DNA of 64,000 nt from Candidatus Oxydemutatoraceae bacterium (lineage in GTDB: Bacteria; Pseudomonadota; Gammaproteobacteria; Poriferisulfidales; Oxydemutatoraceae). The translations under genes were made by a program, and so were the position numbers. The notes below the pieces were generated by a model. The model was not told the DNA's origin. It searched no databases and saw nothing but the letters and a program-made list of their open reading frames with translations. Location of the stretch: the NCBI GenBank assembly GCA_965219575.1, contig OZ244779.1:1036769-1100768 (forward strand), given 5' to 3'. How positions within the stretch are numbered: position 1 is the stretch's first letter; the number at the start of each line of letters is the position of its first letter. Of the stretch, positions 13,055 through 52,629 are shown one piece after another.

Positions 13055-13083
13055 ATAGGTCTGAAGGTGAATTATCGTCTCAC

Positions 13084-16226: not shown

Positions 16227-19200
16227 ATGATTGAAATTATTATAAGTTTCTATATTTTTATGATTCATAAGCGTCAAATAGAAGTAGATTTTAGGGTATC
16301 TATTCTCTTACTGTGTTTAGGGTTGCTCGTTGCGCAACCGCTATTCGCACAAGCCCCTTCTTTTGAGATGGCATGTAATACCGAAGACATAGACGACAAT
16401 GACAATGGTTTGATAGAACTGTGTTATCTGGAAGATGTCGCTGCGATACAGCGTGACGGCACCGGTCTACGGCGGGGGACTGCAACACTGGCTGAAGGTT
16501 GCCCTACAAGTGGTTGCAACGGCTATGAGTTGGTCAGGAATTTAGATTTTACGACGACGCAGAGTTATATGACGGGTGTAGTCAACAGCAACTGGATACT
16601 TAACGCTGCCGATTTTATGGGTACTGCGAGACAAGGCTGGGATCCTATCGGTTCTGTTGCCAACAATGATTGTAGCGATTCGGGTAGCAGATGTTTCGCC
16701 GCTATTTTGGAAGGCAACGGCTATAGCATTTCCAATCTGCAAATCAATAGAGACGGTGCTAACGAGATCGGTCTGTTTGCCGGCAATACCGGCACCATTC
16801 GCAATCTCGGTTTGCGAGAAATAGAAGTAGAAGGTAATAATAGGGTCGGTGGGCTGGTCGGTCGCAACGAGGGTAATCTAATCAATGCCCATGTGATTGA
16901 CAGCCGTGTTGAGGGATCAGCGAACAACGCCGGTCTTTTAGTCGGCGTAAGCCGGCCGAGTGCGTTAATTATCAACAGTTATGTGCGTGGCACTGTGGAA
17001 GGTTCTCGTTGGGTCGGTGGCATCTGTGGCCTAAACTTCGGCAGAATCATCAATAGCTATGCCGAGGTCATGGCAAGTGGCGTGAGGGAAGTCGGTGGTT
17101 TAGTGGCTGAAAATCAACACGGGACTATTCGTAATAGTTATGCGATGGGTTCTGCGCATATAACCGCTAACGACAGTGAAAATCGCCGCAGCGTAGGGGG
17201 TCTGCTCGCTGTATTATGGAGAGTCAGTGACTCAAACCCTAATCCGAGCGTTACAAACAGCTATTCGACCGTCAGAGTGACAGGCAATTTAGCGCGAAAC
17301 AACGTCGGCGGTTTGATCGGCAATACAAACATATCCGACCCACTGATAACCGCTAGCTACTGGGATACCGAGACGAGTGAGCGAACAGCCTCTCCGGGAG
17401 GTGGCACACCTCAGACGACCGATGGATTGCAAATGCCGACTGCACCGGGAACAATGGCGAGCGATGTGTATTATCAATGGAGTACCGACGATTGGGATTT
17501 CGGCACCATGCAGACTTATGCTGCACTGCGCTATGCCATCGGCGACGACAACGACAACCCCGGCTGCGATGTAGAACCCGATACGCCACTGCCGCCTTGC
17601 GGTGCATTGTTATCCGGTCAAGCCGGTCGCGATCGGGGTTTGAATACCTTGTTTTTCGTAATAAACGGTGACCGGCAAGATAATACCAGAGTATTCCGAG
17701 ACCGGCCCTTTTCACCGTTGGTGTTCGACTACGATATAAAACTTCCGAGTCTCCAAACTACGATTGAACTAATACCGTATGCTGTCAACGACACTGCAAC
17801 GATTTCGGTCTTTAGCGCATCGGACCAGGACGACGACCTTTTTATGGGCAGGCGCAGTGGTCAGGAAAGCCGTCCTATCACTCTGCAAGCGAATACGAAC
17901 GAAACGATGATGGTCGAGGTAGATGGATTAACCTATAATTTTAATCTGATTAGAGGACCACAGCCTTCGGTTGAGATTGTCTCCTTCGGCACTATACCCC
18001 CGACCGGCACCGTTGACGAAGGTGACGATATTGTGTTTGAAGCGGTGTTTCGCAACGGGAGCGAGGACTATCAATATTCGTTGCAACAGGGCGGCACGGC
18101 ACTCGGTCAAGGGCAAAATAGCACTGCGACTGTCACCGTCACCATACCCGATAATTTGGTGGCAGCCGGCGAAGAAACAACGCAAACTATTTATACGATA
18201 ACGGTGGACGATAGCTTTGACATAGTTTCCAGGGAACTCATGCTAACCGTCAACAAAATCGACAACGGCGAACCGCAACTGGAATTGAGTGTCAGTCCTA
18301 CTATGTTAAGCATAACTTCTAGTGTGGACGATATCGACGGTGTCGGAACATTCAGCTATCAATGGCAGAGCCGTGACGAGGGCGATAGTGGTTGGAACAA
18401 TCTTCCTTCGGTTACTAATTCCCAGATGGTGGCGGGCAATTCTGCGAATACGATCCGCTATCGTGTCATCGTCAATCATACCGACGGGCAAGGACACGGC
18501 AAAGAATATACGATAGGTTTGTTCCCTAGGGATGTGGACGGAGACGACGACGGTTTGATAGATATTTATTATTTGGAAGACTTGAATGTAATACGCTATC
18601 AGGTCGACGGTAGCGGTTATACGATAAATCCCGAGTCGGACAATATCATTGCAGATAAAATCGTCTCGGGTTGTCCTGCGAATACATGCACCGGCTACGA
18701 GTTGTTAAGAGACTTGGATTTCACGACTGCCCGAAGCTATGTAGATGCAACCGCAGAGGTTCAAGATCAAACCACGGTACTAGACGAATGGACGGTGGAT
18801 GATCCTATGAATGACTCGGATACCGGTTGGTTGCCTTTAGCAACCGCAGATGTCCCGTTCGCGAGTCTATTCAACGGCAACAATAACAACATTTCTAATT
18901 TGCAGATAAACAGGGATACGGCTGACGACTCCGATATCGGATTGTTTGCGGTGCTGTCGCCGTCGGCAAGACTGGAGAATGTCGGCGTATTGGATGTTTC
19001 TATCGAAGGCAGAGGCTATGTAGGTGGCTTGGTTGCGCAAAACGAGGGTGTCATCGTCAATAGCTATGCGCAGGGCGAAGTTGCAGGAGCACAACATAGC
19101 GTCGGTGGCTTGGTTGCGCTCAATTCTACTGCGACCGGCGTGATTATCAACAGCTATGCAAATGTGAGGTTAATGTCCGCCGGTGCTTTATTATCGGGTG

Positions 19201-22200
19201 GTTTGGTCGGCAACAACGATGGAAAGATAAGAAACAGCTATGCTGCAGGTAATGTCGGCGGTGCTTGTGATGTCGGTGGCTTGGTTGCCGAAAACGGTAG
19301 CGAAGGTGAAATCGTCAATAGCTATGCCTCAGGTGCGGTAAACAGGTCGGGAAGCTGTGGCGATGACGGCACCCGCAACCGTGCCGGCGGTTTAGTTGCC
19401 GATAATGCAGGATTGATAAGGAATAGCTATGTGCGTGGGCCTATCTCGGCCGGTGGTGGCACGGCAGGTGGTTTGTTTGCTGTGGGGGCAACCGGCACGG
19501 TTGAGTTCAGCTATTGGGATAGTACGGTGAATAGTGATATTACCGCCGACTCTACGGCTCAGACGACCGCTGATTTGCTAAGTCTGCCGTCTGAAACGGG
19601 TATCTATACTAACTGGAATAGTGCCGACTGGGATTTCGGCACCGCAATGCAATATCCGCTGTTAAGATATACTTCGCCGACCGACATTGCTATCGCAGCG
19701 GTATGCGATGACGACCTCAACACGGCACTACCGCCTTGCGGTAGTATATTGTTGGCTCAAGGAGAGAAAGGATTGAGCAATCTATTATTCTTTACCGGCG
19801 ATGATGCCGTGGCACTCAATCGGCCTTTTTCTCTTTCGCTCCTTTCGGGCTACACGGTTAATGTAGAGGATCAAACCACAATAGAGTTATTGCCGTACGG
19901 GATCAATCCACGAGGCGAGTCTATTACAATCACCCAAAATACAACGAACACCGACTATTTTGTGGGCAAGCTTAGTGGTGAGCAGAGTATGCCGATTCCT
20001 ATTTCAAAGGGAGAGTCGGTTCTGACAATCTCCGTCGGGAATGATCCCACCGATACCAACCCGGTCACTTATAGTGTCACCGTAAATAATATGGTAAGCC
20101 CGGTACAAGTAACAGATGTAACCGGTCCCGATACGGCGGTTGAAGGTGACCCCATTAGTCTGAGTCAAACAGCTACGGGTGGCATCGGCGTAAATTATAC
20201 CTATCGATGGACTTCGGAGCCGGCAGATTTTCTAGACGGGCAAACCGTTACTAATGCGACTTTAAGTTTTAATGTACCCACCGATTTTGTGTTGGGTGAA
20301 AATACAAGTCGCAGCGTAGTCATTAAATCAATCGTCGGCGACAGTTTTTCGGAAAGTAGTGCGATTAAGACCGTGAACATCGTGAAAGACGACAATGGTA
20401 ATCCGGACTTTAGAACCGAAGTGACCGTATCGACGATAAGCATAGAGGCTGTGCCGGGAAGCGATCCCGACGGCGACGGTATGATTACCGGTGCGAGTTG
20501 GGAGCGGCGCACCGTGGATGATGTCGAATGGATGCCGATTCCCGGCCAGACATCGGCGATGTATAGCATCCCGACCGAAGACAGGGGTGACACCCGCTAT
20601 CGAGCGCAGGTGGTCTATATCGATGCCCAGGGTTATAGTCATACGAGTAGTGTCTTAGGTCCCTATAGGGCCGATATAGACGACGACGACGACGGTTTGA
20701 TAGATATCTATTACTTGGAAGATTTGGATACGGTGCGCTATCAAACCGACGGTAGCGGTTATAGAGCGAGCAATGAAGCGACTAGAAGTAGCCGAGGTTG
20801 TATGCCGGTCGACACTACGGAGACCTGTTCGGGTTATGAACTGCGTAGAGACTTGGATTTCATGACTACCCGAAGCTATTTAGTTGCGACGATGAATAGA
20901 ACGATATGGACGGTTAATAACTTTGGTACCGATGCCGATACCGGCTGGCAACCTATCGGGTCTATTGACGGCAATAGCTGTAGCAATACGAGTAGTGATT
21001 GTTTTACCGGTGTTTTCGAAGGTAACGGCTATAGCATTTCCAATCTGCGGATTAATAGAGACAGCACGACCGGTTCCTTGAGCGATAATATAGGTTTGTT
21101 TGTTGGAAATACCGGTACTATTCGCAATTTAGGGTTATCGGGAATAAAAGTACACGGTCATCGAAGGGTTAGTGGTTTGGTCGGTCTCAATGCGGGTAAT
21201 CTAATAAATGTTTATGTGGACGAAGGTGAGGTCGAAGGAAGAAATAACGGCGTGGGGCTTTTAGCCGGCAGAAGTGAGGGATTAATCATCAATAGTTATG
21301 TGCGTGGTACTGTTTTCTCGGCAGGTCGTTTTGCAGGAGGCATCTGTGGCGCAACACTCGGTAGTGGAATTTCCAATAGCTATGCAATCGTCGATGTTAC
21401 GGCAATGGGGAACATAGGCGGATTAGCAGGCGACACGCTAGGACCTATTCGCAATAGTTATGCGATGGGTTCTGTGCGTTTAACTGCAAATGCGAACAGT
21501 GGCCTAGTCGTAGGTGGTCTTGTAGGTGTAATGGCTGTCTTTAACGAGCCAAGTATTACCAACAGCTATTCGACCGTTGCGGTGACAGCTGATAATCCAA
21601 CCGGCAATATAATTAGCGGTTTAATCGGGGACAGGACAGAAGCTGTAGACGCATCGGCGATAAGCGACAGCTACTGGGATAGCAACACGAGTATGCAGAC
21701 GACCTCTATGGGAGGTGGCACCTCTAAAACAACCGTTGAATTGCAAATGCCGACTAATCGAACTGCTGAAATAGGTATCTATGCCAACTGGAATAGTGCC
21801 GATTGGGATTTCGGCACCTCGCAGACTTATGCTGCATTGCGCTATGCCATCGGCGACGATAATGCCAACCCCGGCTGCGATGCCGATCCCGATACCGCCT
21901 TGCCACAGTGTGGTGATTTATTGCCGGGTCAAATTGCAACGGTACTCCCGATAGAAATAACGAATATAACGGTTCCCGAAACGGTGAATGAAGGTGATGT
22001 CATTAATTTGAGTGCGGCGGTTATGGGTGGCAACAGCGATAGTTATAGTTATAGATGGACGTCGGAACCGGCGTCTCTACTCGCCGGCGTATCGGAGACG
22101 GACATCGCCAATCCTACTCTAAGTTTCATCGTCCCCACCGATTTTGTACTCGGCGAAGCCTCAAATCGGGATGCCGTGATCGAACTGACTGTCGGCGACG

Positions 22201-31200: not shown

Positions 31201-34200
31201 ATACCATAAGTACTGCTACGGTCGGCATCACCCGAGGCTGCCGGTTAGCCGGCGATAATACCGAGACCTGTTCGGGTTACGAGTTGCGTAGAGATTTGGA
31301 TTTTGCAACCACCCGAAGCTATGTAGATGCGACGACGAATAGAGACGAATGGACGGTGGATGATCCCATGAATGACTCGGATAGCGGTTGGCTACCTATC
31401 GGTTCTATTGTTAGCAACGACTGTGAAGACTCGGGCAGCAATTGTTTTACTAGTACTTTTGAAGGCAACGGCTACGACATTTCCAATTTGCAAATCAACA
31501 GAGATACGGTCGACGACTCCGATATCGGATTGTTTGCAGTGCTGTCGTCGTCGGCGAGGATAGAGAATGTCGGCCTATTGAATGTAGCCGTTGAAGGCAG
31601 AGGTCATGTCGGTGGCTTGGTTGCGCAAAACGAGGGTGAAATCGTCAATAGCTATGTGCGAGGGGAAGTCAAGGGAACACAGCATAGCGTCGGCGGATTG
31701 GTTGCGTCTAATTCCAGTTCTATGACTAGCGTGATTGTCAACAGCTATGCAGACGCAACGGTAATGTCTACCGATGCGCTATTATCGGGTGGTTTGGTCG
31801 GCAACAATCACGGCAAGATTAGAAACAGCTATGCGGCGGGTAATGTGCGTGGTTCTTGTAATGTAGGAGGTTTGGTTGCCGAAAACGGAAGTGAAAGTGA
31901 AATTGTCAATAGCTATGTGTCGGGTGAGATAAGTAGATCCGGAAGCTGTAGCGATGACGGCACGCGGAATCGCGTCGGTGGTTTAGTTGTCGATAATGCA
32001 GGATTGATAAGGAATAGTTATGTGCGCGGTCGTGTTAGCGGTAGCGGCACTATAGGTGGTTTGATTGGCGATGCCGAGGCAACCGGCACGGTTGAGTTCA
32101 GCTATTGGGATAGCACGGTGAATAGCGGTCTTACCACCGATACCAATGCCAGGATCAGCACCGATTTGCAGTCGCCGGTTGCGGCAATCGGCATCTATGC
32201 ACAATGGAACACTGCCGATTGGGACTTCGGTGGTACGACGAGTTATCCTGCGCTGCGTTATGCCGAGGTTGACGGTGTCGATGCTTGCGATAGCGATGCG
32301 AATACGGCGTTGCCGCGTTGCGGTGCGTTGCTATCCGATCAAGCCGGTCGCGACGAGGGTTTGAGCGCATTGTTTTTCGTGATAAACAGTGCCGAGCAGG
32401 ATAATGATCGCATATTCGGCAATCAGCCTTTTTCATCGTTGGTGTTTGACTACGATGTAGTGATCCCGAATACTGCGGAGTTTCAACTGAGACCGTATGC
32501 TATCGACAGCGAGGCAACGATTTCAATCGTCAAAGTAGCAGATACGAGTACCGACTATTTTGATGGCAGGCTTAGCGGTGAGTCTAGTCTTGACATTCCC
32601 GTATCGGAGGGTATAACCGAAGTCATAAGGATTACGGTGGACGGTGTTGCTTATACTTTGCGTCTAAGAGTGAGCCCCGAGAATCCGGTTAGAATTACGA
32701 ACTTTGTCAGTGATCCGGTAGCCGGTAGCATTGTGGATGAAGGACAGTCTGCTACTTTAACTTTTGCGGTTGCCGACGGTAGTAGTGTAAATTATCGTTA
32801 TTCGTTGCAACAAGCAGGCAGAGAGATTGCCCAAAGTAATGATCCTACTTTTACCGCCGTCATACCGTTGGATTTTGTGCAAGCCGACCTGACGACACAG
32901 AGCATCGTCTATACGATAACGGTTGACGATAGTTTTAGCACTGCGTCCGCCGAACTTGAGCTCATTGCGAATAAAGAGAATAACGGCGAGCCGCAACTGG
33001 AATTGCGCATCACGCCTACTTTCCTAAGCACAACTTCTACCGTAGCCGATGTCGATGGTGCCGGTACATTTACATATCGCTGGGAACGACGAGAGCGGAT
33101 TGATGTTAGCTGGATGGAGGTCTCTACGACTTTTGGTGTTTCGATACCTGCCGATACTCCTGGCGAGGTTCGTTATCGTGTGACAATAGACCATACCGAC
33201 GGGCAGGGATATCGCAATACCTATCTGATTGGACCGTTTCCTGCCGGCATCGACGGCAATAACAACGGCTTGATAGATATTTATTATTTGGAAGACTTGG
33301 ATGCGATGCGTAATCAGCTCGACGGTAGCGGTTATAGCATAAATTCCGGATACAGCAATATCATCGTAGATGAGAACACCTCGGGTTGTCCCGACGGCGG
33401 TTGCAGGGGCTACGAATTGAGTAGGAGTTTGGACTTTAACGAAGATACACACTACCTTGATGCTGCTGCAAACAAAGAGAGATGGACGACGGGTACGGGT
33501 TGGCAGCCGATCGGTGATTTTGATAATCCTTTCAGTGCGATATTCATGGCGAGTACCGAGAGCTTGACTATCTCTAATTTGACGATAGATAGGCGCAATG
33601 AGTCGGGTGTAGGGTTGTTCGGTGAGTCGTCGGGTCGCATAACCGATATTCGTTTAAGCGATGTATCGGTTAGAGGATATAGCGTAGTCGGTGGTTTGGT
33701 GGGTTCCAATAGAGGTCAAATAACCGCCGGTTCGGTAACCGGTTCCGTGGAAAGTGTGGACACATGGGCCGGAGGCTTGGTCGGCACCCATTGGAATGAG
33801 ATTAAGAACAGCTACGCACAGGTTGATGTGTCGGGGTATAGTTCGGTCGGTGGCTTGGTAGGCTATAGCTTCGGAACCATAGCCGATAGCTATGCCTTCG
33901 GTGATGTGAAAGCAAGGATCTTCGGCGGTGGTTTGGTCGGCTTTAACCAAGGCCCTATAGCTCGTAGCTATGCGAGTGGTAGCGTTGAGAGTGCCTTTTA
34001 CGCCGGCGGGTTAATCGGCTACAACGATAGTTATATAGATGCTATCGGCAGAGGTGGAGTAATTGAAAATGTTTATGCGACCGGCAATGTCATCGGTGGC
34101 ACTTATCTCGGTGGCTTGGCAGGTTATAACGACAGCGATATAAACAACGGATATGCGATCGGTCGCGTTATCGGAGGCGGTGGTTCGGGTGGTTTGGTCG

Positions 34201-37200
34201 GCTTCAACGACAACGAGGGTGTGATTACAAACAGCTACTGGGATATTGACACGACCGGGCAAGCAACCTCCGACGGTGGGATCCCTAGGACGACCGTGCA
34301 GTTGCAAATGCCGACCGAACCGGGGGCGACGGCGGATATGACTTATTACCAATGGAGCGATAGTGCTTGGAACTTCGGTAGTACGACCGAATATCCGACG
34401 CTCAAAGACGAGGACGGCAACGATTTACCGTTGCTCGAGACTCGGCTGGGTACATCGCTCGGGCTCGGTGCGCTGGTGTTAAGCGGATTACAATTATCGG
34501 ACGGTATGTTGGAACCGCCGTTTGACCCGACTAAGACAAGCTACGAGCTATTGGATCTAGCCGGCGAACAGACGACGATGACGGCGACGACGGCAGCGGA
34601 AAATGCAGTTATTTCTATAGAAGTAGATAGTCAAACGGCGTCTACGGGCAATCTGGCAGTGGCTACCCGAATAACGGATACGGTAAATAATATCGTTATC
34701 AGAGTGACGGTGTCAGGGCGTAGCACGGCAACCTATACGGTCGTATTGCCCGCCAACCGTCCGTCGCTGGCCGGCATACCTAAAGAACCCTGTAGTCTGA
34801 CGGATGTAGATCAAGACGACGACCGCCTGATAGAGATTTGCGACATAGAGGGACTGTATGCGATGCGCTATCGTTTGGACGGCAGTGCGTATAAAGCGAG
34901 CAGTGCGGCAGCGGAGATTGACAGCGGTTGTCCGCAGAGTGGCTGTATAGGCTATGAATTGATGAATGATTTGGACTTCGGTAATCCCGACCACTATAGG
35001 GATGGTAGCAACCGAGCGATATGGACGGTTACCGATTACGCCGACGATAGCGATAAAGGCTGGCGACCGATAGGGGATTTTGCCGTCTCGTTTAATGCCA
35101 CATTCAAGGCGAACAGTCATACGATTTCGGGTTTGCAGACCAACAGAGACGACAACACAAACGGCAGAGATTACGCAGGTCTTTTCGGGCATATAGGGGC
35201 GCGTGCGCAACTTGACGGGGTCGATTTGTCCGCTATAGATGTAAGGGGCAGATTTGTAGTCGGTGGTTTGGTCGGGCGGAGCGACGGTGGGACGGTAATC
35301 AATAGTTCTGTAGAAGGCATTGTAGCGGGAAGCCCGGTCATTAATTCGTTGGGTTCAAGCTGGATAGGCGGTATGGTAGGTTCTAATAACGGTGCAATCG
35401 TCAACAGCTATGCGCAAGCGAGCGTATTCGGACACACGACGATCGGTGGTTTGGTGGGTGTTGCAACAAAGGGTAGCGACATCCGAAATAGTTACGCTCT
35501 GGGTAGTGTGAACGGCATCAACTATGTAGGCGGTCTGGCCGGCTTTAATCAAGGTCGTTTTGAAAACTGCTATGCGAGAGTCTCAATCGGTGGTGTTTTT
35601 TCGGTTGCCGGTCTGGTCGCTTTGAACGACGACGAAGGTGTTATAAGGAATAGCTATGCTGTTCCCGACTCATTTTTTCCTATAGCCGGTTTGGTGGAGA
35701 CTAATCAGGGTACTATCATCGATAGTTACTGGCAACGAAGCGATACGGTAAGCAGTAGCGACGGAGGTATCGGTTTGATGCCGGAAGTACTGCAAGCGTC
35801 GGCTTCGTTTCCCGGATGGTTGTCGGCGAACTGGGATTTTACCGACGGTGAGTATCCGGGACTGAAGTATGCCGAGGGCGGCGATCCCGATAATCCTGCG
35901 TGCGAGACACCGCCGCCGGATACGCAACTGCCGAACTGCGGCACCTTATTGGCGAATCAAAGACTTGGACTGGAGCGCATAGAATTAGTCGGAGTCGAAC
36001 TGTTCCCGAATTTCAATTCTGCGATAAACAACTATTCTGCGAGTGTTTCCGTTGAGACGACGAATGTCATGATAGTCGTGAGCTCAAATAACGTAATGAC
36101 ACCGATAAATATAAACGGCGTTGAGGCATCGGGTAATGTTAGTAGTATCGTAAAATTAGCCGAGACCGAAGATACTAAAATTACGATTGCAAGCGTAGAG
36201 GATGCTACAACCTATACCGTCGTCATCGTAAAGCAGTCGGAGATCGCCGGTTTTGTGCCTAGCCGTTTTGCAGGACGGCCCGCCGACCCACAATGCAGAA
36301 ACTGCAATCCGACCGTCGACGGTGTTGTGCAGATACGCTTTGCCGACGAGACCTTATCGCAAAGTGGAGATAGCATACGGGTTAAGCTCCAATTTAGAAG
36401 ACTATTCGGTGGTGATGGCGATAGTCGCTATATTGCCTCCGCCGGTTTAGGTTTGAGATATAACCCCGCCGTTTTCGGCCAATGTACCCATGAACGTTCG
36501 GATTTCTTCACCGCTACCGATAATTACGCTATTTCGTTTTCCGATACCGATGTCGATGAGTTGCGTATAGCCGAGACAGGTATAGATCTAAATGCAGGCT
36601 CCGACGAATTTAGTGCGTTGGGTGAGGCATGGAAAGATTTGGTAACGCTGACCTGTGCGATACCGAATCGGGAGAACGAACTGGGAGCGGCAATAGCCGG
36701 TACCGCTGCCCGACAAGTTGTCTTATATAGGTACGACAGCGACGGTGATGCGATACCGAGTGTGGCGTTGCTGTCGGCAAACAACGATTTGCGAGGATTG
36801 AGAGCCGACGACAGGAGCTATGTGGAGGCGTATATGCGTCACAGCGACGGCAAGGGCGTACGCTTGAAGTTTTCCAAAGGTGTGGCGGTATTTCCCGATG
36901 TGCGCGGTGGCACACAATCGGATGCAGTCGCTTTGACGACCGACAATTTTAGTCTAGCTATGTCTACCGATGCGGCGATTAGTACCGTGACCCATGTGGT
37001 CGGTAGCCGCTATGTCAATATCGAGTTTGACCGAGTGGTGGTGAATAATATATTGAGGCTGGTCAGCACATCGACAAGCATAATCTACGATGTCGACGAC
37101 GCAATAATGCAAGGTGAGGCATTGGCACATGACAGTTTTGCTGCCGAATTGGCATACGACAGCGAAGCCCCGGTGGTCGAGCGTTTGGTTGAAAGTGTTA

Positions 37201-39953
37201 CCGTGGTTCAAGAAACAACGAGAAACATAATATTTAACAAGCCTCTAAACCCGGCGACGGTGAGCATAGAAGCCTTATGTTTGGCCGATGAAGAGGGTCT
37301 TTGTGCCGGCGACGACGAAGCAACGGGAAGCAGTATTACCTCGGTGGTACTGATGGAAGACAACAGCGTGTTGCAAGTAGGTATAAGTAGTGCCGAGCAG
37401 GTGGCAAGAGATGCTCGCATAGAGTTTAGACGCGGTGCGTTATTGGGAACCGATTACAGGTGGGTTGAAGAGTATCAAGTCGCATTGAGAGACCCGATAA
37501 CGATACCGGATGTTGTGGCACCGACGATCACGGTATCGGCGGTCGATGGTACGGCGAATATAGAAACACAAACGCATACGCGCATCACTTACGGTATGAG
37601 TTTCACGGTCTCTGCCAACGAACCCGTAGTCGGTTTGAATACGACAAGTTCTTACAGCTTATTGCGAGTCCCGGATACCGGTGATGCGGTGCTCGTAGAA
37701 AATGCCGTGCCGAGTACAACAACGGTATCGGGGACGAATCAAGTGACAGTGAGCTACAGTGGTATAGAGGTTCCGGTGTCGGATGTTACGAACACCAGAG
37801 GTTTTACGCTGAGAAGAACGAGCGATACATCGCTACAAGATTTATCGGGTAAAGATCCTATCGGGTCGTCCTCCGGCTTTTTGGACGCTACCGGTGTTAG
37901 CAACGGAAGTGCCGTAGCGCAGACCGGAGATTTAGATAATACGGCACAATTAATGAGTTTGAGCCTATCGGTAGAGAGCGAGAGCAGTCCATTGTCACCG
38001 CCCTTTGATCCTGCGGTTGCGGTTAGAAGTTATAGCATAGCAAATGTTGCAAATTCGGTGGGTGATACCACGATAAGCGTGACCGCACAAAACCCGGCAA
38101 ACATTAGACTAATAAGAATAGGGAGTAGCTCCGACGACGATATAGCGGTCAATGCGTTATCGGTGACCAGCGACGCCATACCGCTGGAAGAAGGTGGGAC
38201 GACGACGATTACCATCGTGGTTATTGCGCAAGACGGCACAACCGAAGAGGAATATACCGTTGCGGTAGAACGTTTGCCGAGTATGGTTGCCGACTTAGAA
38301 GCATTGGAGGTAGTAGGCGACAGTGGCACGATAGAATTGGATCCCGACTTTTCTACGGGTGAAACCGAATATACGGCACGAGTGCGAAACGATTTAGAGA
38401 CGATTTTGATAAACACGACGGCAACGCAAAGCGCGGCGACAATTCAAATCGCAAAAACCGAAATTATGGATAACACGCCGAGAATGCCTCGTCGATCGAT
38501 CTCCTTAGATCAAGGAACGACGACAACCATCGTCGTACGAGTAACTGCGCAAGACGGAACAACCACCGCAAACTATGTAGTTACGGTAGTACGCCTGCCG
38601 AGTACGGTTGCCGGCTTGGAAGCATTGGAGATAGTAGGCACTAGTGGCACGATAGAATTGGATCCCGACTTTTCTACGGGTGAAACCGAATATACGGCAC
38701 GAGTGCGAAACGATTTAGAGACGATTTTGATAAACACGACGGCAACGCAAAGCGCGGCGACAATTCAAATCGCAAAAACCGAAATTATGGATAACACGCC
38801 GAGAATGCCTCGTCGATCGATCTCCTTAGATCAAGGAACGACGACAACCATCGTCGTACGAGTAACTGCGCAAGACGGAACAACCACCGCAAACTATGTA
38901 GTTACGGTAGTACGCCTGCCGAGTACGGTTGCCGGCTTGGAAGCATTGGAGATAGTAGGCACTAGTGGCACGATAGAATTGGATCCCGACTTTTCTACGG
39001 ATGAAACCGAGTATACGGCACGAGTGCGAAACGATTTGGAGACGGTTTCGATAAACACGACGGCAACGCAAAGCGCAGCGACAATTCAAATCGCAAAGAC
39101 CGAAATTATGGATAACACGCCGAGGATGCCTCGTCGATCGATTACCTTAGATCGAGGAACGACGACGACTGTCGTCGTACGAGTAACTGCGCAAGACGGA
39201 ACAACCACCGCAAACTATGTAGTTACGGTAGTACGCCTGCCGAGTACGGTTGCCGACTTGGAAGCATTGGAGGTAGTAGGCGACAGTGGCACGATAGAAT
39301 TGGATCCCGACTTTTCTACGGGTGAAACCGAATATACGGCACGAGTGCGAAACGATTTAGAGACGATTTTGATAAACACGACGGCAACGCAAAGCGCGGC
39401 GACAATTCAAATCGCAAAAACCGAAATTATGGATAACACGCCGAGAATGCCTCGTCGATCGATCTCCTTAGATCAAGGAACGACGACAACCATCGTCGTA
39501 CGAGTAACTGCGCAAGACGGAACAACCACCGCAAACTATGTAGTTACGGTAGTACGCCTGCCGAGTACGGTTGCCGGCTTGGAAGCATTGGAGATAGTAG
39601 GCACTAGTGGCACGATAGAATTGGATCCCGACTTTTCTACGGGTGAAACCGAATATACGGCACGAGTGCGAAACGATTTAGAGACGATTTTGATAAACAC
39701 GACGGCAACGCAAAGCGCGGCGACAATTCAAATCGCAAAAACCGAAATTATGGATAACACGCCGAGAATGCCTCGTCGATCGATTACCTTAGATCAAGGA
39801 ACGACGACGACCATCATCGTACGGGTAACCGCGCAAGACGGCACAACCCCCCTCGAAGACTATACGATTACGGTAGTACGTTTGCCGAGTACGGATGCCA
39901 TGAATGCCATCCGCATTCGCGTCAAAGTATTCTTGGAAGGCCCCCTGCAATAG
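16227..39953 (+). CDS. Giant (7908 aa) exported repetitive protein with GLUG-motif modules and cadherin-like beta-sandwich domains; putative adhesin or surface protein
   Basis: Single 23.7-kb open frame with a GAGG RBS. Hydrophobic N-terminal segment ending LFA-Q. Ten DxDxDGLIDIYYLEDL modules followed by VGGLVG.N.G.I.NSYA arrays, then PFDP..T.Y-type domains. Confidence 0.9.
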   Translation: MIEIIISFYIFMIHKRQIEVDFRVSILLLCLGLLVAQPLFAQAPSFEMACNTEDIDDNDNGLIELCYLEDVAAIQRDGTGLRRGTATLAEGCPTSGCNGYELVRNLDFTTTQSYMTGVVNSNWILNAADFMGTARQGWDPIGSVANNDCSDSGSRCFAAILEGNGYSISNLQINRDGANEIGLFAGNTGTIRNLGLREIEVEGNNRVGGLVGRNEGNLINAHVIDSRVEGSANNAGLLVGVSRPSALIINSYVRGTVEGSRWVGGICGLNFGRIINSYAEVMASGVREVGGLVAENQHGTIRNSYAMGSAHITANDSENRRSVGGLLAVLWRVSDSNPNPSVTNSYSTVRVTGNLARNNVGGLIGNTNISDPLITASYWDTETSERTASPGGGTPQTTDGLQMPTAPGTMASDVYYQWSTDDWDFGTMQTYAALRYAIGDDNDNPGCDVEPDTPLPPCGALLSGQAGRDRGLNTLFFVINGDRQDNTRVFRDRPFSPLVFDYDIKLPSLQTTIELIPYAVNDTATISVFSASDQDDDLFMGRRSGQESRPITLQANTNETMMVEVDGLTYNFNLIRGPQPSVEIVSFGTIPPTGTVDEGDDIVFEAVFRNGSEDYQYSLQQGGTALGQGQNSTATVTVTIPDNLVAAGEETTQTIYTITVDDSFDIVSRELMLTVNKIDNGEPQLELSVSPTMLSITSSVDDIDGVGTFSYQWQSRDEGDSGWNNLPSVTNSQMVAGNSANTIRYRVIVNHTDGQGHGKEYTIGLFPRDVDGDDDGLIDIYYLEDLNVIRYQVDGSGYTINPESDNIIADKIVSGCPANTCTGYELLRDLDFTTARSYVDATAEVQDQTTVLDEWTVDDPMNDSDTGWLPLATADVPFASLFNGNNNNISNLQINRDTADDSDIGLFAVLSPSARLENVGVLDVSIEGRGYVGGLVAQNEGVIVNSYAQGEVAGAQHSVGGLVALNSTATGVIINSYANVRLMSAGALLSGGLVGNNDGKIRNSYAAGNVGGACDVGGLVAENGSEGEIVNSYASGAVNRSGSCGDDGTRNRAGGLVADNAGLIRNSYVRGPISAGGGTAGGLFAVGATGTVEFSYWDSTVNSDITADSTAQTTADLLSLPSETGIYTNWNSADWDFGTAMQYPLLRYTSPTDIAIAAVCDDDLNTALPPCGSILLAQGEKGLSNLLFFTGDDAVALNRPFSLSLLSGYTVNVEDQTTIELLPYGINPRGESITITQNTTNTDYFVGKLSGEQSMPIPISKGESVLTISVGNDPTDTNPVTYSVTVNNMVSPVQVTDVTGPDTAVEGDPISLSQTATGGIGVNYTYRWTSEPADFLDGQTVTNATLSFNVPTDFVLGENTSRSVVIKSIVGDSFSESSAIKTVNIVKDDNGNPDFRTEVTVSTISIEAVPGSDPDGDGMITGASWERRTVDDVEWMPIPGQTSAMYSIPTEDRGDTRYRAQVVYIDAQGYSHTSSVLGPYRADIDDDDDGLIDIYYLEDLDTVRYQTDGSGYRASNEATRSSRGCMPVDTTETCSGYELRRDLDFMTTRSYLVATMNRTIWTVNNFGTDADTGWQPIGSIDGNSCSNTSSDCFTGVFEGNGYSISNLRINRDSTTGSLSDNIGLFVGNTGTIRNLGLSGIKVHGHRRVSGLVGLNAGNLINVYVDEGEVEGRNNGVGLLAGRSEGLIINSYVRGTVFSAGRFAGGICGATLGSGISNSYAIVDVTAMGNIGGLAGDTLGPIRNSYAMGSVRLTANANSGLVVGGLVGVMAVFNEPSITNSYSTVAVTADNPTGNIISGLIGDRTEAVDASAISDSYWDSNTSMQTTSMGGGTSKTTVELQMPTNRTAEIGIYANWNSADWDFGTSQTYAALRYAIGDDNANPGCDADPDTALPQCGDLLPGQIATVLPIEITNITVPETVNEGDVINLSAAVMGGNSDSYSYRWTSEPASLLAGVSETDIANPTLSFIVPTDFVLGEASNRDAVIELTVGDGLIESTATGTVTVEKVDNGNLSLSATVTTSTISIEILENDPDGAGSVAYTWEQRSIARAGWQPILNPSNSYTVPAQDASSFRYRVRLSYTDAQGYPYTSGVLGPFRAEIDDDDDGLIDIYYLEDLDAVRYQLDGTGYTPSTTTVKITRGCPLAGDNTETCSGYELRRDLSFTAMQSYVDATTNRDEWTVDNPMNDLDTGWPPIGGSFGSTFEGNGYSISNLQINRDTVDDSDIGLFAVLSSSARIKNVGLLNVAVEGRGYVGGLVAQNEGEIVNSYVQGEVKGAQHSVGGLVAFNSSSTTGVIVNSYANATVMSTGALLSGGLVGNNHGTIRNSYAAGHVSGVCDVGGLVAENGSGSEIINSYVSGEISRSGSCIDDGNRNRVGGLVADNAGLIRNSYVRGRVSGSGAIGGLFAVGATGTVESSYWDSTVNSGITIDTNARISADLQMPTMPGTIPTEIYYDWSTADWDFGDMTSYPALRYAEVDGVDSCDNDANTALPRCATLLSDQAGRNEGLSALFFVINGAEQDNDRIFRNQPFSSLLFDYDVVIPNTMNFQLRPYAINNTTMISIVKEADTSIDYFDSRLSGESSLDIPVSEGISEVIRITVDGVVYTLNLRVSPENPVRITSLVADPVAGSIVDEGQSVTLMFAVADGSSDNYRYSLQQAGRVIARSTDTTTFTAVVPTDFVQADLTTQSIVYTITVDDSFSTASAELMLIARKINNSIPQLELNIGPALLSISTTADADGIGTFMYQWERRDRVDSGWIDDSTSASATVPANSSSEIRYRVTVRHTDGQGDSNTYRINPFPVIVDGDSDGLIDLYYLEDLDTIRNSSDGSGYDIDTERDDITIDKNTLGCPNGGCIGYELSRSLDFDDDNSYSSTANKITWTTGAGWQPIGSISNDDCGDSASDCFNSIFEGNNNQLSNLRINRDTVDDAHIGLFTAVSQDARIENVGILDVAIEGRGYVGGLVARNAGVIVNSYVQGGAVTGTQHSLGGLVAINDSGVSTRATITNSYASVMTISTVVLSTGALVGRNRGVIRNSYASGNASGSCDVGGLVAENGNGSEIVNSYASGTVNRSGSCSDATRDRAAGLVAYNAGSIENSYVSGRVSGSGAVGGLVGNAEPTGTVTSSYWDSTVNSGITADADDGIATGTAALQEPTAPGSIATQIYHNWSTADWDFGTSRTYAVLRYAGGDDSDNPACDLDPDTPLPPCGALLLDQGGADRKGLGGLFFFVDGEPLDMSLLNKPFSFSVFSGYVINLENKALIELSPYGLNARGQSISIFRMGDTPRRDYFDEKHSGELSEPIRIPRGRSVLTIVVGDAPGDPDPVTYSFTVNNEVTTVEITDLTSNATMLEEGETINIEATVSGGARLNYRYQWTAEPAELLGRVSNADITSPTLSFSIPPDFVSLEATTRSAMIILTVRDNLSESRATETVVIEKVDNGARLFMTTVTTSEINIATVADDPDGNGDGTVDYSWELRSIDDDDWMSTSIVSNRYTVPAQDASSFRYRVRVSYTDAQGYDFDRLFGPYRADIDDDDDGLIDIYYLEDLDAVRYQTDGSGYTTSTATVKITRGCRPIDNIETCSGYELRRDLDFATTRSYVNAARHRGEWTVDNFATGSDGWQPIGEIPSGLFVDCNATGSDCLNSIFEGNGYSISNLQINRDLDGVGLFAGNNGTIRNLGLSEIRIEGGNQVGGIVASNDGILMNSHVDSSVAGVDRSVTGSLRVGLLAAANNGLIINSYARGDVRANTFVGGICGYSGGEIINSYADAEVVANNSSAGGLVGLMSRINEIDAIITDSYATGSVGAQDSQGSQGGIVGFLAQNTNIRNSYSTAEVTTMTASAGGLVGTSNASVFDSYWDVETSMQMRSAGGTSSTTAELQMPTIPGTTATEVYYNWSPDNWDFGNTMSYPALRYTDGGVDACAANPETALPRCGALLPEQNGRDEGLSILFFVIDDEEQDNADIFVNQPFSSLLFNYDVTIPYTENFRLRPYAINSTAAISITRAGDTQGIDYFNDASGELSDKIPLRGNMTEVLTITVDGVDYTLNIRVGPQDPVEITDFSSVPVAGSTVDEGDSVSLNIEIDGSSGDYDYLLQPGGIEISRVATTATFSVVIPDTFVEAGSTTQSITYTITVDDGFGTASAELMLVVRKTDNGEPQLEFNVGANSLEITPTVADIDGVGTFRYRWQSRAEGANDWTDISATNRYTVSGTPASTVRYRVIVNHTDGQQHSREYIIGPFPINVDGDGDGLIDVYYLEDLDAIRNRLDGSGYSVDPGSDSISVDKITLGCPSDTCVGYELLRDLNFTTEQSYVDATAQVQGQTTLLDEWTVNDPTDDSDSGWLPIGSGDTPFAALFRADNHKIFNLQINRDTVDDAHIGLFAALSQNARIENIGLLDVAIEGRGHVGSLVAQNEGVVVNSYVQGGEITGTQHSLGGLVASNSSMTGVVINSYASVTTTSTEVFSPGGLVGSNRGVIRNSYATGDVSGPCDVGGLVAESFVGSQIVNSYASGNVHRAGSCMDDGTLDSVGSLVGYHRGLIRNSYGSGRVSGSGTKGGLVGDAENSTVTFSYWDVETSMQMRSAGGTSQTTAELQMPTAPGSIANQVYFNWSTADWDFGTSLNYPIIRYTTATDILSEPACDDNLDTPLPQCGGVLLGQGDIGLSSILFFAGDDTLNEAELDPPFSLSVLSGYTVNTVDEVLIRLLPYGIDVLGETIAIFKTGDTLSVDYFEDRRSGELSAPIPISRGQSVVTVRVGDDPDTVDYSFIVNNEVSAVEVTDVAGDFTMRREGETVSLSATVQGGISDNYSYRWTSEPASLLAGLSEADITSRTLSFSIPLDFVSRDVLSRDAEIKLTVGDGFSVSSATETVTVEKVNDGDPNFTATVTAAEISIATVGDDPDGIGVTVYAWEQRSIANVVWEPIPGVPNTSNTYTVPPQNASSFRYRVRLSHTDAQGNPFSQVLGPFRAEIDDDDDGLIDIYYLEDLDAVRYQTDGSAYTISTATVGITRGCRLAGDNTETCSGYELRRDLDFATTRSYVDATTNRDEWTVDDPMNDSDSGWLPIGSIVSNDCEDSGSNCFTSTFEGNGYDISNLQINRDTVDDSDIGLFAVLSSSARIENVGLLNVAVEGRGHVGGLVAQNEGEIVNSYVRGEVKGTQHSVGGLVASNSSSMTSVIVNSYADATVMSTDALLSGGLVGNNHGKIRNSYAAGNVRGSCNVGGLVAENGSESEIVNSYVSGEISRSGSCSDDGTRNRVGGLVVDNAGLIRNSYVRGRVSGSGTIGGLIGDAEATGTVEFSYWDSTVNSGLTTDTNARISTDLQSPVAAIGIYAQWNTADWDFGGTTSYPALRYAEVDGVDACDSDANTALPRCGALLSDQAGRDEGLSALFFVINSAEQDNDRIFGNQPFSSLVFDYDVVIPNTAEFQLRPYAIDSEATISIVKVADTSTDYFDGRLSGESSLDIPVSEGITEVIRITVDGVAYTLRLRVSPENPVRITNFVSDPVAGSIVDEGQSATLTFAVADGSSVNYRYSLQQAGREIAQSNDPTFTAVIPLDFVQADLTTQSIVYTITVDDSFSTASAELELIANKENNGEPQLELRITPTFLSTTSTVADVDGAGTFTYRWERRERIDVSWMEVSTTFGVSIPADTPGEVRYRVTIDHTDGQGYRNTYLIGPFPAGIDGNNNGLIDIYYLEDLDAMRNQLDGSGYSINSGYSNIIVDENTSGCPDGGCRGYELSRSLDFNEDTHYLDAAANKERWTTGTGWQPIGDFDNPFSAIFMASTESLTISNLTIDRRNESGVGLFGESSGRITDIRLSDVSVRGYSVVGGLVGSNRGQITAGSVTGSVESVDTWAGGLVGTHWNEIKNSYAQVDVSGYSSVGGLVGYSFGTIADSYAFGDVKARIFGGGLVGFNQGPIARSYASGSVESAFYAGGLIGYNDSYIDAIGRGGVIENVYATGNVIGGTYLGGLAGYNDSDINNGYAIGRVIGGGGSGGLVGFNDNEGVITNSYWDIDTTGQATSDGGIPRTTVQLQMPTEPGATADMTYYQWSDSAWNFGSTTEYPTLKDEDGNDLPLLETRLGTSLGLGALVLSGLQLSDGMLEPPFDPTKTSYELLDLAGEQTTMTATTAAENAVISIEVDSQTASTGNLAVATRITDTVNNIVIRVTVSGRSTATYTVVLPANRPSLAGIPKEPCSLTDVDQDDDRLIEICDIEGLYAMRYRLDGSAYKASSAAAEIDSGCPQSGCIGYELMNDLDFGNPDHYRDGSNRAIWTVTDYADDSDKGWRPIGDFAVSFNATFKANSHTISGLQTNRDDNTNGRDYAGLFGHIGARAQLDGVDLSAIDVRGRFVVGGLVGRSDGGTVINSSVEGIVAGSPVINSLGSSWIGGMVGSNNGAIVNSYAQASVFGHTTIGGLVGVATKGSDIRNSYALGSVNGINYVGGLAGFNQGRFENCYARVSIGGVFSVAGLVALNDDEGVIRNSYAVPDSFFPIAGLVETNQGTIIDSYWQRSDTVSSSDGGIGLMPEVLQASASFPGWLSANWDFTDGEYPGLKYAEGGDPDNPACETPPPDTQLPNCGTLLANQRLGLERIELVGVELFPNFNSAINNYSASVSVETTNVMIVVSSNNVMTPININGVEASGNVSSIVKLAETEDTKITIASVEDATTYTVVIVKQSEIAGFVPSRFAGRPADPQCRNCNPTVDGVVQIRFADETLSQSGDSIRVKLQFRRLFGGDGDSRYIASAGLGLRYNPAVFGQCTHERSDFFTATDNYAISFSDTDVDELRIAETGIDLNAGSDEFSALGEAWKDLVTLTCAIPNRENELGAAIAGTAARQVVLYRYDSDGDAIPSVALLSANNDLRGLRADDRSYVEAYMRHSDGKGVRLKFSKGVAVFPDVRGGTQSDAVALTTDNFSLAMSTDAAISTVTHVVGSRYVNIEFDRVVVNNILRLVSTSTSIIYDVDDAIMQGEALAHDSFAAELAYDSEAPVVERLVESVTVVQETTRNIIFNKPLNPATVSIEALCLADEEGLCAGDDEATGSSITSVVLMEDNSVLQVGISSAEQVARDARIEFRRGALLGTDYRWVEEYQVALRDPITIPDVVAPTITVSAVDGTANIETQTHTRITYGMSFTVSANEPVVGLNTTSSYSLLRVPDTGDAVLVENAVPSTTTVSGTNQVTVSYSGIEVPVSDVTNTRGFTLRRTSDTSLQDLSGKDPIGSSSGFLDATGVSNGSAVAQTGDLDNTAQLMSLSLSVESESSPLSPPFDPAVAVRSYSIANVANSVGDTTISVTAQNPANIRLIRIGSSSDDDIAVNALSVTSDAIPLEEGGTTTITIVVIAQDGTTEEEYTVAVERLPSMVADLEALEVVGDSGTIELDPDFSTGETEYTARVRNDLETILINTTATQSAATIQIAKTEIMDNTPRMPRRSISLDQGTTTTIVVRVTAQDGTTTANYVVTVVRLPSTVAGLEALEIVGTSGTIELDPDFSTGETEYTARVRNDLETILINTTATQSAATIQIAKTEIMDNTPRMPRRSISLDQGTTTTIVVRVTAQDGTTTANYVVTVVRLPSTVAGLEALEIVGTSGTIELDPDFSTDETEYTARVRNDLETVSINTTATQSAATIQIAKTEIMDNTPRMPRRSITLDRGTTTTVVVRVTAQDGTTTANYVVTVVRLPSTVADLEALEVVGDSGTIELDPDFSTGETEYTARVRNDLETILINTTATQSAATIQIAKTEIMDNTPRMPRRSISLDQGTTTTIVVRVTAQDGTTTANYVVTVVRLPSTVAGLEALEIVGTSGTIELDPDFSTGETEYTARVRNDLETILINTTATQSAATIQIAKTEIMDNTPRMPRRSITLDQGTTTTIIVRVTAQDGTTPLEDYTITVVRLPSTDAMNAIRIRVKVFLEGPLQ
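38272..39890 (+). repeat. Five tandem 321-bp (107-aa) near-identical cadherin-like repeats
   Basis: The anchor GATCCCGAC recurs at 38340, 38661, 38982, 39303 and 39624. Confidence 0.97.
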
Positions 39954-40004: not shown

Positions 40005-40598
40005 TCATATTGGGTTGATGACGGCGATCACTCCGATGACCGGGTGGTCTATATAGAATAGTTCTTCATCGGTCATAATTCTTTCTAAGTGTATAGGGAT
40101 AGAAAAAGTTTGTGGTGTGTCTACGAATCGAGGTGCTTCGTCGAAGGCGGGGTCGTATTGAAAATCTAATATCAGTTTGAAATAACTCTCAAAACTCATC
40201 CAAGCAGTCGCTTTGAGTAATCCGTTTTGAGGTTCGTTTAAGATATCGATGTAGGGTGTTTGGGCGCGGTTTAAGGGCGGTTGCCGCCACCCACCGTGAT
40301 AGAGTAATTCATAGCGGCTGTCTAGCTCGATTTTTTGTGCTTCGTCGGTTAATCTCAACTGACCCTCGGTTACCGCCCGTATATCGTCGTAGGCATCGGT
40401 TTGAGATAGATCCAAAGCTGCGCGTTCCGCATGCCGGCTTGTCTGCATATGGCTTAGGTCTTTGAGTTTGTCTATTGCGATATCGGCTTCTATTTGCTTG
40501 AAGACGATAATCTCTGCTTGGTATAGTTCGGCGGTGTCTTGTGCACCTGCATCGCTACAGCATATTAAAAGCGATATCGATAAAAATAGAATTTTCAT
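40005..40598 (-). CDS. CsiV-like peptidoglycan-binding protein
   Basis: Signal peptide; YQAEIIVF, YELLYHGGWRQP and YIDHPVIG motifs; usual position downstream of mfd. Confidence 0.75.
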   Translation of the reverse strand: MKILFLSISLLICCSDAGAQDTAELYQAEIIVFKQIEADIAIDKLKDLSHMQTSRHAERAALDLSQTDAYDDIRAVTEGQLRLTDEAQKIELDSRYELLYHGGWRQPPLNRAQTPYIDILNEPQNGLLKATAWMSFESYFKLILDFQYDPAFDEAPRFVDTPQTFSIPIHLERIMTDEELFYIDHPVIGVIAVINPI

Positions 40599-44060: not shown

Positions 44061-44137
44061 GATTAAGGTCAATCACAGTTTGGTTTTGGTTTCCATAGAT
44101 CAAATTAATGAATATATAAAATAGTGCAGACTCCGCT

Positions 44138-45784: not shown

Positions 45785-45812
45785 TTCACTATCTCCTTGA
45801 TAATTGTTGGGC

Positions 45813-46484: not shown

Positions 46485-46655
46485 TTTGAAAGCCTCGTTC
46501 TCGTTAAAAAGTCGGTCGTTAAATTTAGGGTATCATACAGCGATTGGTGGTTTTGTGCAAGTGGTGTGGTTTATGTATGTCATTCTCAATTTCTGCAAGC
46601 AACCAATAGGGGTAGATTATCGAGCCGGCGATTCAATATCTCGTTTCGGTTTTCG

Positions 46656-52514: not shown

Positions 52515-52629
52515 AATGTAATGGATAGAAACAGAAATACTTTTTTGAGACTTTAATCTAAATTGTGTAAGTTCAAATTAAGATAAACTAGGTGGCAACA
52601 CCAAACTAATAAAGGAGAACTTTTATATT

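Follow-up and report, generated by a model that had tools for sequence, protein, structure and literature searches.

A giant repeat protein with a Sec-type N-terminus and a candidate C-terminal sorting tail in a gammaproteobacterial genome

We analysed a stretch of 64,000 nucleotides from a Candidatus Oxydemutatoraceae bacterium (contig OZ244779.1), hereafter called the window, in which one gene encodes a protein of 7908 residues, P0001. This protein starts with a Sec-type signal peptide, continues with ten beta-helix modules carrying up to three beta-sandwiches each, then with a cohesin-like and immunoglobulin-like (Ig-like) block and lastly a cadherin-like array, and ends in a 14-residue tail, IRIRVKVFLEGPLQ, placed directly before the stop codon. 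A preliminary description of the same DNA, made from its letters alone, had presented P0001 as an exported giant with no visible secretion route. We report here that the tail recurs at the very end of many other giants and that it is a candidate for the missing signal. The features of the locus and of its neighbourhood are collected in Table 1.

Table 1. Features of the giant gene and of its surroundings (positions in nucleotides of the window; aa, residues of P0001)
Feature	Position	Strand	Remark or basis
tkt	14090-16102	-	upstream flank
Whole gene (7908 codons and stop)	16227..39953	+	one uninterrupted frame, no stop in 23.7 kb
Sec-type signal peptide, aa 1-41	16227..16349	+	basic n-region HKRQ...R, h-region SILLLCLGLLVA
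Alternative start ATG	16260	+	signal peptides of homologues align there
Module 1, aa 52-770	16380..18536	+	Ca-loop-like DxNxNG, helix and cap GC..C.GYEL..NLDF, GLUG beta-helix, SYWD...WDFG C-cap, CxxxxxxxxxxC loop, three beta-sandwiches
Module 2, aa 771-1484	18537..20678	+	Glug, E 5.3e-14
Module 3, aa 1485-2100	20679..22526	+	without the first, cadherin-like beta-sandwich
Module 4, aa 2101-2802	22527..24632	+	modelled module
Module 5, aa 2803-3529	24633..26813	+	module alignment
Module 6, aa 3530-4240	26814..28946	+	module alignment
Module 7, aa 4241-4964	28947..31118	+	module alignment
Module 8, aa 4965-5675	31119..33251	+	80% identical to module 4
Module 9, aa 5676-6193	33252..34805	+	shortened: beta-helix and one beta-sandwich
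Module 10, aa 6194 to ~6668	34806..36230	+	shortened: beta-helix and one Cadherin-like domain (aa 6591-6668)
Region without Pfam match, aa ~6690-7215	36294..37871	+	cohesin-like jelly-roll, then Ig-like domains
Cadherin-like beta-sandwich array (PF12733)	37965..39908	+	Pfam; contains the 321-nt tandem array
Tandem array, 5.1 copies of 321 nt	38259-39899	+	95% matching; sole near-identical array in the gene
C-terminal tail IRIRVKVFLEGPLQ, aa 7895-7908	39909..39950	+	proposed sorting or anchoring tag
Stop codon	39951-39953	+	directly after the tail
CsiV-family gene	40005-40598	-	PF10972, E 9e-17; downstream flank
mfd	40599-44072	-	beyond the CsiV-family gene
Flavocytochrome c sulfide dehydrogenase-like flavoprotein (fccAB-like), dihaem cytochrome, NapC/NirT-type cytochrome	44495-47210	-	sulfur-oxidiser marker
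REP-like motif or palindrome sites	44141-44157, 44413-44429, 53255-53271, 58945-58961, 58993-59014		motif matching in the window
REP-associated tyrosine transposase-like gene	58130-58696		window ORF scan

The giant gene and its product

The open reading frame (ORF) is open throughout, and the scan of the window's ORFs places it between tkt and the pair csiV-mfd; on both points the preliminary description was right. Computed from the sequence, P0001 has a mass of about 840 kDa, an isoelectric point of 4.18 and 73 cysteines, among which 36 neighbouring pairs lie at most 35 residues apart, with recurring spacings of 5, 7, 9-11 and 30; this bears out the paired cysteines that had been pointed out. 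The Sec-like hydrophobic N-terminus is likewise supported, as the sole strongly hydrophobic segment and by its likeness to that of homologues: 19-residue windows exceeding a Kyte-Doolittle score of 1.6 start at residues 17-26, and only one other starts elsewhere, at residue 6448. Cleavage is likely between LFA and QA. Signal peptides were judged here and below from sequence features and homologues. Homologues show a matching N-terminal signal (...CLGL..VQP.FAQ), and their 25-residue signal peptides align to ...DFRVSILLLCLGLLVAQPLFAQ; the true start may be at 16260 rather than at 16227. A promoter-like site ends at 16228, and a GAGG lies upstream of 16227. Rfam found nothing in the gene or adjoining it.

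A repetitive gene of this length can raise the suspicion of an assembly artefact with inflated repeats, or of a decaying pseudogene. Repeats do exist in the gene, the copy number of the 321-nt array could be wrong since its copies match at 95%, and some of the tails found in related genomes (see below) come after short frames. However, the frame is free of stops over 23.7 kb, it sits on a 2.37-Mb contig, and its repeats are far from identical: DNA repeat families within the gene are 60-93% identical and pairs of modules 34-80% identical in protein. Moreover, an independent relative of 6,742 residues encoded on a different contig, P0002, follows residues 1-5692 of P0001 collinearly, with 90% identity. 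This means that two assemblies agree on the first eight modules. Mis-assembly, which the preliminary description had named as a possible undoing of its reading, is for these reasons unlikely, and we hold artefact and pseudogene together to be highly improbable. The giant gene is real and intact.

Past residue 5692, which lies in module 9, P0001 and P0002 are completely unlike each other, and still both retain the 14-residue tail. The C-terminal part has been swapped between them (33300-39953 in the window), with the tail in common.

The gene had also been described as standing alone. This does not hold for the family, since at least 78 giant homologues of module 2 were found. All homologue searches were limited by word sharing as well as by length windows, and the family counts given below are lower bounds.

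A conserved tail at the extreme C-terminus

The consensus of the tail over its 14 residues is [ILV]-R-[ILV]-R-x-[KR]-V-F-[LP]-E-G-[PL]-L-[QR]-COOH, the last position being x in the family definition; in a tighter form it reads [IL]-R-[IV]-R-x-K-V-F-L-E-G-P-L-[QR]-COOH. It forms an amphipathic strand, with hydrophobic residues alternating with arginine or lysine, followed by FLEGPL, and with its own ending P0001 takes its place among the tailed giants of the Candidatus Porisulfidus lineage. Among the 78 giant homologues, 48 end in [KR][VIL][FLV][LP]E[GS][PLF][LF] plus one to a few residues and none carries this motif internally; the 30 without it are cut off or frameshifted, or belong to other clades with other ends. 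A slightly wider motif closes 84 of the 266 proteins fetched (827,226 residues) and lies inside none of them. The glutamate is present in 59 of 59 unique tails, the glycine in 58, the phenylalanine in 54 and the valine in 52, and the five positions ahead of these conserved residues alternate between hydrophobic and basic.

A degenerate DNA pattern encoding K-[VI]-F-L-E-G-P-L-x-stop was run against 185,579 species, each represented by one genome, and gave 29 matches where about 4 are expected by chance according to our own arithmetic. Three Candidatus Porisulfidus metagenome-assembled genomes (MAGs) account for 26 of them (11, 9 and 6), and the other three, in ORFs of 11-45 codons from unrelated MAGs, are in line with chance. 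The tail of the window is absent from the scan; its species is therefore outside that genome collection. Each of the Porisulfidus genomes (2.2-2.9 Mb) holds 6-11 genes with the strict tail plus further giants with variant tails.

The 26 Porisulfidus loci and the window agree beyond what the pattern demanded, with [ILV] at positions -14 and -12 in all 27, R at -11 in 26 and R at -13 in 21. Their DNA varies freely where the peptide permits it: all synonymous codons are used, including six leucine codons at one position and four proline codons. The tail genes use all three stop codons, and the conservation of bases drops to background right past the stop. Synonymous change being free and conservation ending at the stop, we concluded that selection acts on the peptide and not on a DNA element.

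These observations bear on one alternative, namely that the conserved 3' end is an element acting at the DNA level, such as a recombination site, a terminator or the edge of a mobile cassette. It is true that C-terminal parts are exchanged between close relatives and that repeats resembling repetitive extragenic palindromes (REP) lie past several tail genes. The REP-like intergenic motif GCTGTTGAAAAAGTATT, common to the Porisulfidus loci, has 4 matches in the window against 0.01 expected; a GC-rich palindrome, common to the window and the Porisulfidus loci, has 1 match against 0 expected; and one or the other follows the stop codon in seven loci (L001, L004, L006, L015, L023, L025 and L027). 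Yet a DNA element would hardly leave synonymous positions free, tolerate all three stops and lose its conservation exactly at the end of the frame, and we find this alternative scarcely credible.

The tail does not seem to have been described before. No model of Pfam (searched with the last 109 residues, where only Cadherin-like and a weak FixG_C match were returned) or of NCBIfam matches it; with the last 50 residues at E<=10, NCBIfam gave noise only (BasC, E 0.063) and no CTERM model. The tail strings have no occurrence in the searchable literature, and the titles and abstract openings of the literature on GLUG motifs, domains or repeats, and on GLUG with sponge symbionts, held nothing relevant.

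Modularity of the tail and its exchange with other C-terminal signals

The tail is not tied to one kind of protein. At 23 loci the domain ahead of it is Cadherin-like, Big_9, Big_2, He_PIG or PKD, or is none known to Pfam; elsewhere it follows a helical LDSR...IIRAI segment. Giants devoid of GLUG repeats also end in it, and so does a complete protein of only 439 residues with its own signal peptide (L022). A profile of the tail run against proteins of 71-2000 residues gave 13 matches at E<=10, mostly C-terminal fragments of giants, but three of them (P0099, P0118 and P0092) are complete and have signal peptides. When the last 349 residues were searched among shorter proteins, matches to the generic Cadherin-like domain prevailed, and 11 further tails turned up. 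By a simple rule, 56 of the 84 tailed proteins have a signal-peptide-like N-terminus; this rule replaced a stricter one whose figure, 37 of 68, was an undercount. Across the whole tailed set, which consists mostly of giants and is restricted to one lineage, nothing is common but the tail at the C-terminus and, as it seems, a Sec signal peptide at the N-terminus.

Furthermore, relatives of P0001 carry other endings where it carries the tail. A search of 1.84 billion representatives with the region of residues ~6690-7215 gave 59 relatives at E<=1e-3. The tail closes 16 of them, and a hydrophobic stretch followed by RRRR closes 14 as counted by rule, or 15 as judged by eye. The remaining 29 have neither end; they are mostly short fragments, and three of the 29 show degenerate tails. 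Two of the relatives with a hydrophobic tail have the NCBIfam domain choice-of-anchor U just upstream of it (in P0103 with 34.3 bits, for a cut-off of 32). Similarly, among GLUG giants of other clades, two (P0057 and P0059) close with a hydrophobic stretch and RRRRR, and a third (P0069) carries PF18962, a domain of the type IX secretion system (T9SS). Where Cadherin-like arrays occur elsewhere, they are closed by T9SS, autotransporter or SLH modules. Interchange with known C-terminal signals is the usual mark of a sorting or anchoring signal, and this swap in relatives therefore suggests that the tail takes the role of a T9SS C-terminal domain or of a hydrophobic-plus-basic sorting tail.

One may object that P0001, once past Sec, could leave by a general exit (type II secretion, vesicles or lysis), the tail being then a structural or interaction element instead of a sorting signal, for example an end-cap strand, an oligomerisation strand or a non-covalent anchor to lipopolysaccharide. 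An amphipathic basic strand could indeed bind anionic surfaces, no dedicated machinery was found among the ORFs of the window or the neighbours of tail genes, and a gene for a GspE/PilB-type ATPase (positions 2-1135 of L009, and L021) is convergent to two orthologous tail genes. The identity of this ATPase is ambiguous, with 446 bits for PilB and 444 bits for GspE, both below cut-off because the ORF is cut. However, structurally unrelated domains and a helical segment precede the tail, which therefore is not the last strand of one fold. Its glutamate and glycine are all but invariant and keep a fixed distance from the carboxyl end, as one would typically see in a tag that is recognised, and classical sorting tails substitute for it in relatives. 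We consider a general exit unlikely.

Modules and domains ahead of the tail

Motif positions and a MAFFT alignment give ten modules, whose starts (16380-34806) all fall within about 10 nt of those proposed in the preliminary description. GYEL, YW[DQ] and W[DN]F[GT] each occur 10 times in P0001 and Y[LI]ED[LV] 9 times. Modules 1-8 follow one plan: an acidic DxDxDG loop, a LIDIYYLEDL..(I/V)R segment, a cap GC..C.GYEL.RDLDF, NSY/GGLV rungs, a SYWD...LQ.PT...W...WDFG...YP.LRY stretch, a C..D..T.LP.CG loop and three beta-sandwich domains. The loop, the cap, the GLUG array and the Ig/cadherin-like spacers previously assigned to every module were thus recovered, with the qualification that DxDxDG is strict in 8 of the 10 modules, modules 1 and 10 holding variants. 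A helix-plus-strand cap is usual for beta-helices of this type, and the DxDxDG-helix segment resembles one. A reading of this segment as a dockerin was dropped, as Pfam gave no dockerin match.

In Pfam, Glug was found in the two halves of P0001 (E 6.8e-52 and 6.1e-44) and Cadherin-like in 8 stretches of the C-terminal half (E 9.2e-71), with no other family above cut-off, neither cohesin nor dockerin included; NCBIfam gave only a weak match to ZmpA (24-31 bits for a cut-off of 3000). A profile of the ten modules matches the beta-helix of the pneumococcal IgA1 protease (6xja, 6xjb and 7jgj); the match covers about 175 positions, with an E-value of 1.2e-15. PF05342 is annotated on many homologues of P0001. 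When module 2 was compared with the PDB by phmmer, only a weak match to the Ig domain of a phage decoration protein appeared.

An AlphaFold2 model of module 4, computed with the ten modules as alignment, reached a mean predicted local distance difference test (pLDDT) of 73.8, with a beta-helix at residues ~100-315 (pLDDT 80-95) and three beta-sandwiches at ~400-700. Its Foldseek matches are tandem Ig, FN3 or cadherin arrays, including SiiE (2yn3) and GhpA. The block of residues ~6690-7215 was modelled with a mean pLDDT of 75.6 and a predicted TM-score of 0.71. Its first domain (36294-36800) resembles cohesins in Foldseek (TMt 0.49-0.60, including 4ums at 0.60 and 5lxv_C at 0.53), and its Ig-like domains resemble those of the adhesins FdeC and Bap; the ESM Atlas, searched with residues 6661-7298, gave no usable match. 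In most of its relatives this block comes directly after the signal peptide, at the mature N-terminus of GLUG-free giants. P0001 as a whole resembles a string of beads and, judging from these domain orders, seems to join a giant made of GLUG modules with a giant surface protein of another type.

Proposed route and what weighs against it

The preliminary description saw no autotransporter, RTX repeats, two-partner secretion (TPS) domain, or genes for a type I secretion system (T1SS) or TpsB in the window, and Pfam, NCBIfam, regular expressions and the ORF scan agree with it on each count. Profile searches of P0001 found no canonical T1SS, type V or T9SS signal, and the scan of 31 window ORFs brought up no gene of a secretion system, Ccm and Lol being the ABC transporter systems present. 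Its statement that no secretion route is visible stands insofar as no canonical signature is present; it has to be amended insofar as a tail is visible at the end of the protein.

Our preferred reading, to which we give a probability of roughly 0.6, is that P0001 would be an adhesin-like protein, exported by Sec and rich in disulfides, and that a new C-terminal tag would sort or anchor it. It draws on features of the sequence, namely the Sec-type N-terminus, the paired cysteines, the peptide-level selection on the tail, its modularity, its restriction to one lineage and its interchange with other signals. P0001 would be exported through Sec and, as its paired cysteines suggest, form disulfides in the periplasm. 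A lineage-specific partner would recognise the tail and move the protein to the surface, hold it there, or both. An amphipathic strand suits either of two contacts: it may add to a sheet of the partner, as in donor-strand complementation, or lie on the anionic surface of the outer membrane. Its domain types suggest that P0001 would finally be displayed as a long adhesin, or as a coat protein, facing other cells or the matrix of the host; no catalytic signature was found in it by Pfam or by a search for HExxH.

Several observations weigh against this reading. First, no partner, receptor or processing enzyme was found in the window or in the 2 kb following each of the 26 tail genes, and no gene recurs across non-orthologous loci within these 2 kb. 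The genes past the tail are the next giant (L004 and L025), pnp-like genes, a hydrolase gene, the PilB/GspE-like ATPase gene mentioned above, and others. Second, 28 of the 84 tailed proteins show no signal peptide; they begin inside repeat domains and look truncated. Third, 3 of the 26 Porisulfidus tails (L005, L027 and L029) come after frames of only 63, 27 and 39 codons, so that some copies may be decayed or frameshifted. Fourth, P0001 is the sole protein fetched, by our length-windowed searches, from its own contig of 2,369,097 bases, and its genome may therefore hold few substrates of the tail. Fifth, the tail is short, and its conservation could serve folding, oligomerisation or turnover instead of sorting. 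Finally, the model of module 4 is of low confidence over its first 95 residues, where the calcium loop is putative. One tailed "cadherin-like" protein from a Chromatiales MAG (P0213), which begins like EF-P, is also at odds with this reading; it is probably a gene-call fusion.

Two of the loci listed above, both on Porisulfidus contig OZ241323.1, show giant genes in tandem: a new GLUG giant with a signal peptide like that of P0001 starts 681 nt (L004) or 327 nt (L025) past the end of the tail gene.

We may go one step further, although only tentatively, as we rate what follows somewhat below even odds. The tail may define a new C-terminal sorting system that works without a transmembrane segment and is confined to a clade of sponge-associated sulfur oxidisers, in which a dedicated machine of the outer membrane or the periplasm would detect Sec-exported proteins by their free C-terminus, perhaps through strand addition. 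Giant adhesins would be exported or anchored in this way as an entire repertoire.

Few routes are known for moving very large, folded, disulfide-bonded proteins to the Gram-negative surface, and the tail narrows the puzzle of how P0001 is secreted. A short tag on many giants provides a concrete handle for finding the missing machinery, and the handle gains strength from the confinement of the tag to a single symbiont lineage, known sorting signals standing in its place elsewhere. It can be used in comparative genomics, in metaproteomics directed at C-terminal peptides and in structure prediction of complexes. It also flags a large gene family, which probably shapes the contact between the symbionts and their sponge host, and in these small genomes it marks many genes of 13-24 kb.

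Other features of the window

The organism can be read from the sequence as a sulfur-oxidising gammaproteobacterium of, or near, the Candidatus Porisulfidus lineage. Besides the sulfur-oxidiser marker of Table 1, the window holds genes for the maturation of c-type cytochromes and a tkt-gap-pgk-pyk-fba cluster, and it has the REP-like motifs described above in common with the Porisulfidus loci. Porisulfidus is given as a known sponge symbiont in one paper (PMC12988363); another (PMC9123188) and a bioRxiv preprint use it as an outgroup to SUP05.

Some further observations can be made on the window. Between ccmF and dsbE/ccmG, a segment of low GC content (51860-53826, about 0.40) interrupts the otherwise compact ccm cluster; it contains only short ORFs (at most 137 residues), and Rfam gave no match there. 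Two ORFs of 402 and 347 residues (59029-61249, minus strand; GC 0.40-0.42) have no match in Pfam or NCBIfam and adjoin a DUF2062 gene and comEC. On the minus strand, a gene of glycosyltransferase family 25 lies at 4859-5851 and a sulfotransferase-like ORF at 7696-8220; their products may modify a surface glycan. The pgk ORF, which has a GTG start, and gap overlap by 73 nt (11852-13156 and 13084-14109, minus strand); the true start of pgk is probably further downstream.

Comparison with known systems

The closest relatives in sequence of the P0001 beta-helix are found in the streptococcal M26 IgA1 protease and ZmpA-C (6xja, 6xjb, 7jgj), with which the modules share the GLUG repeats. P0001, however, has no protease domain and no LPXTG motif, HExxH occurs 0 times in it according to a regular expression search, and it carries instead ten copies of the beta-helix per chain behind a Gram-negative Sec signal. 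Going by sequence homology, then, its beta-helix belongs with the N-domains of the GLUG/IgA1-protease family, and P0001 itself is not a protease.

The preliminary description held P0001 to be unlike the described giants LapA, SiiE and filamentous haemagglutinin (FHA), and the absence from it of the defining signatures of those systems supports this view. P0001 might still be a type I secreted adhesin of the LapA or SiiE kind, with its transporter encoded elsewhere in the genome. Like LapA, SiiE and MpIBP, it is giant, acidic and repetitive, has tandem Ig/cadherin-like domains, a likely calcium dependence (the DxDxDG loops) and an adhesin-like role, and SiiE was among its many Ig-tandem Foldseek matches. 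It differs from them by its Sec-type signal peptide and close cysteine pairs, by the lack of RTX repeats (0 nonapeptides of the form GGxGxDxUx and no RTX match in Pfam), and by a window without genes for an ABC transporter other than Ccm and Lol, for a membrane fusion protein (MFP) or for TolC. To our knowledge, the known T1SS adhesins carry no Sec signal. We regard type I secretion as very unlikely.

With FHA and two-partner secretion, P0001 shares its great size, its beta-helical structure and its Sec signal, but its beta-helix is of the GLUG type and interrupted by beta-sandwiches; no TPS domain or any other Pfam match lies in residues 1-160, the first 400 residues have no NPN[GL], and the window holds no TpsB gene. 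As for autotransporters, no match to PF03797 or a related barrel was found in either half of P0001 or in its last 109 residues.

The T9SS giants of Bacteroidota likewise combine a Sec signal with a C-terminal signal on huge arrays of beta-sandwiches and beta-helices, and homologous passengers exist, such as P0069 with its PF18962 and many proteins in which PF12733 is accompanied by PF13585 or PF18962. In T9SS cargo the signal folds as a domain of ~70-100 residues, whereas the tag of P0001 has only 14 residues and its host is a gammaproteobacterium; neither PF18962 nor PF13585 was found by Pfam in either half of P0001 or in its last 109 residues. The tags of the PEP-CTERM/exosortase, GlyGly-CTERM/rhombosortase and MYXO-CTERM systems are, like our tail, short, restricted to lineages and placed at the C-terminus of many Sec-exported surface proteins; they too sit on varied domains and are interchangeable with other anchors. 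But CTERM tags contain a membrane-spanning helix followed by basic residues, while the tail of P0001 has no hydrophobic helix and its basic residues precede the conserved motif.

Giant repetitive surface proteins are common in symbiont genomes; the new element here is therefore the tail and not the protein as such. As far as its sequence allows one to judge, P0001 would work most like the cargo of T9SS and of the CTERM systems, with a Sec signal at one end and a C-terminal tag, in this case of a new form, at the other.

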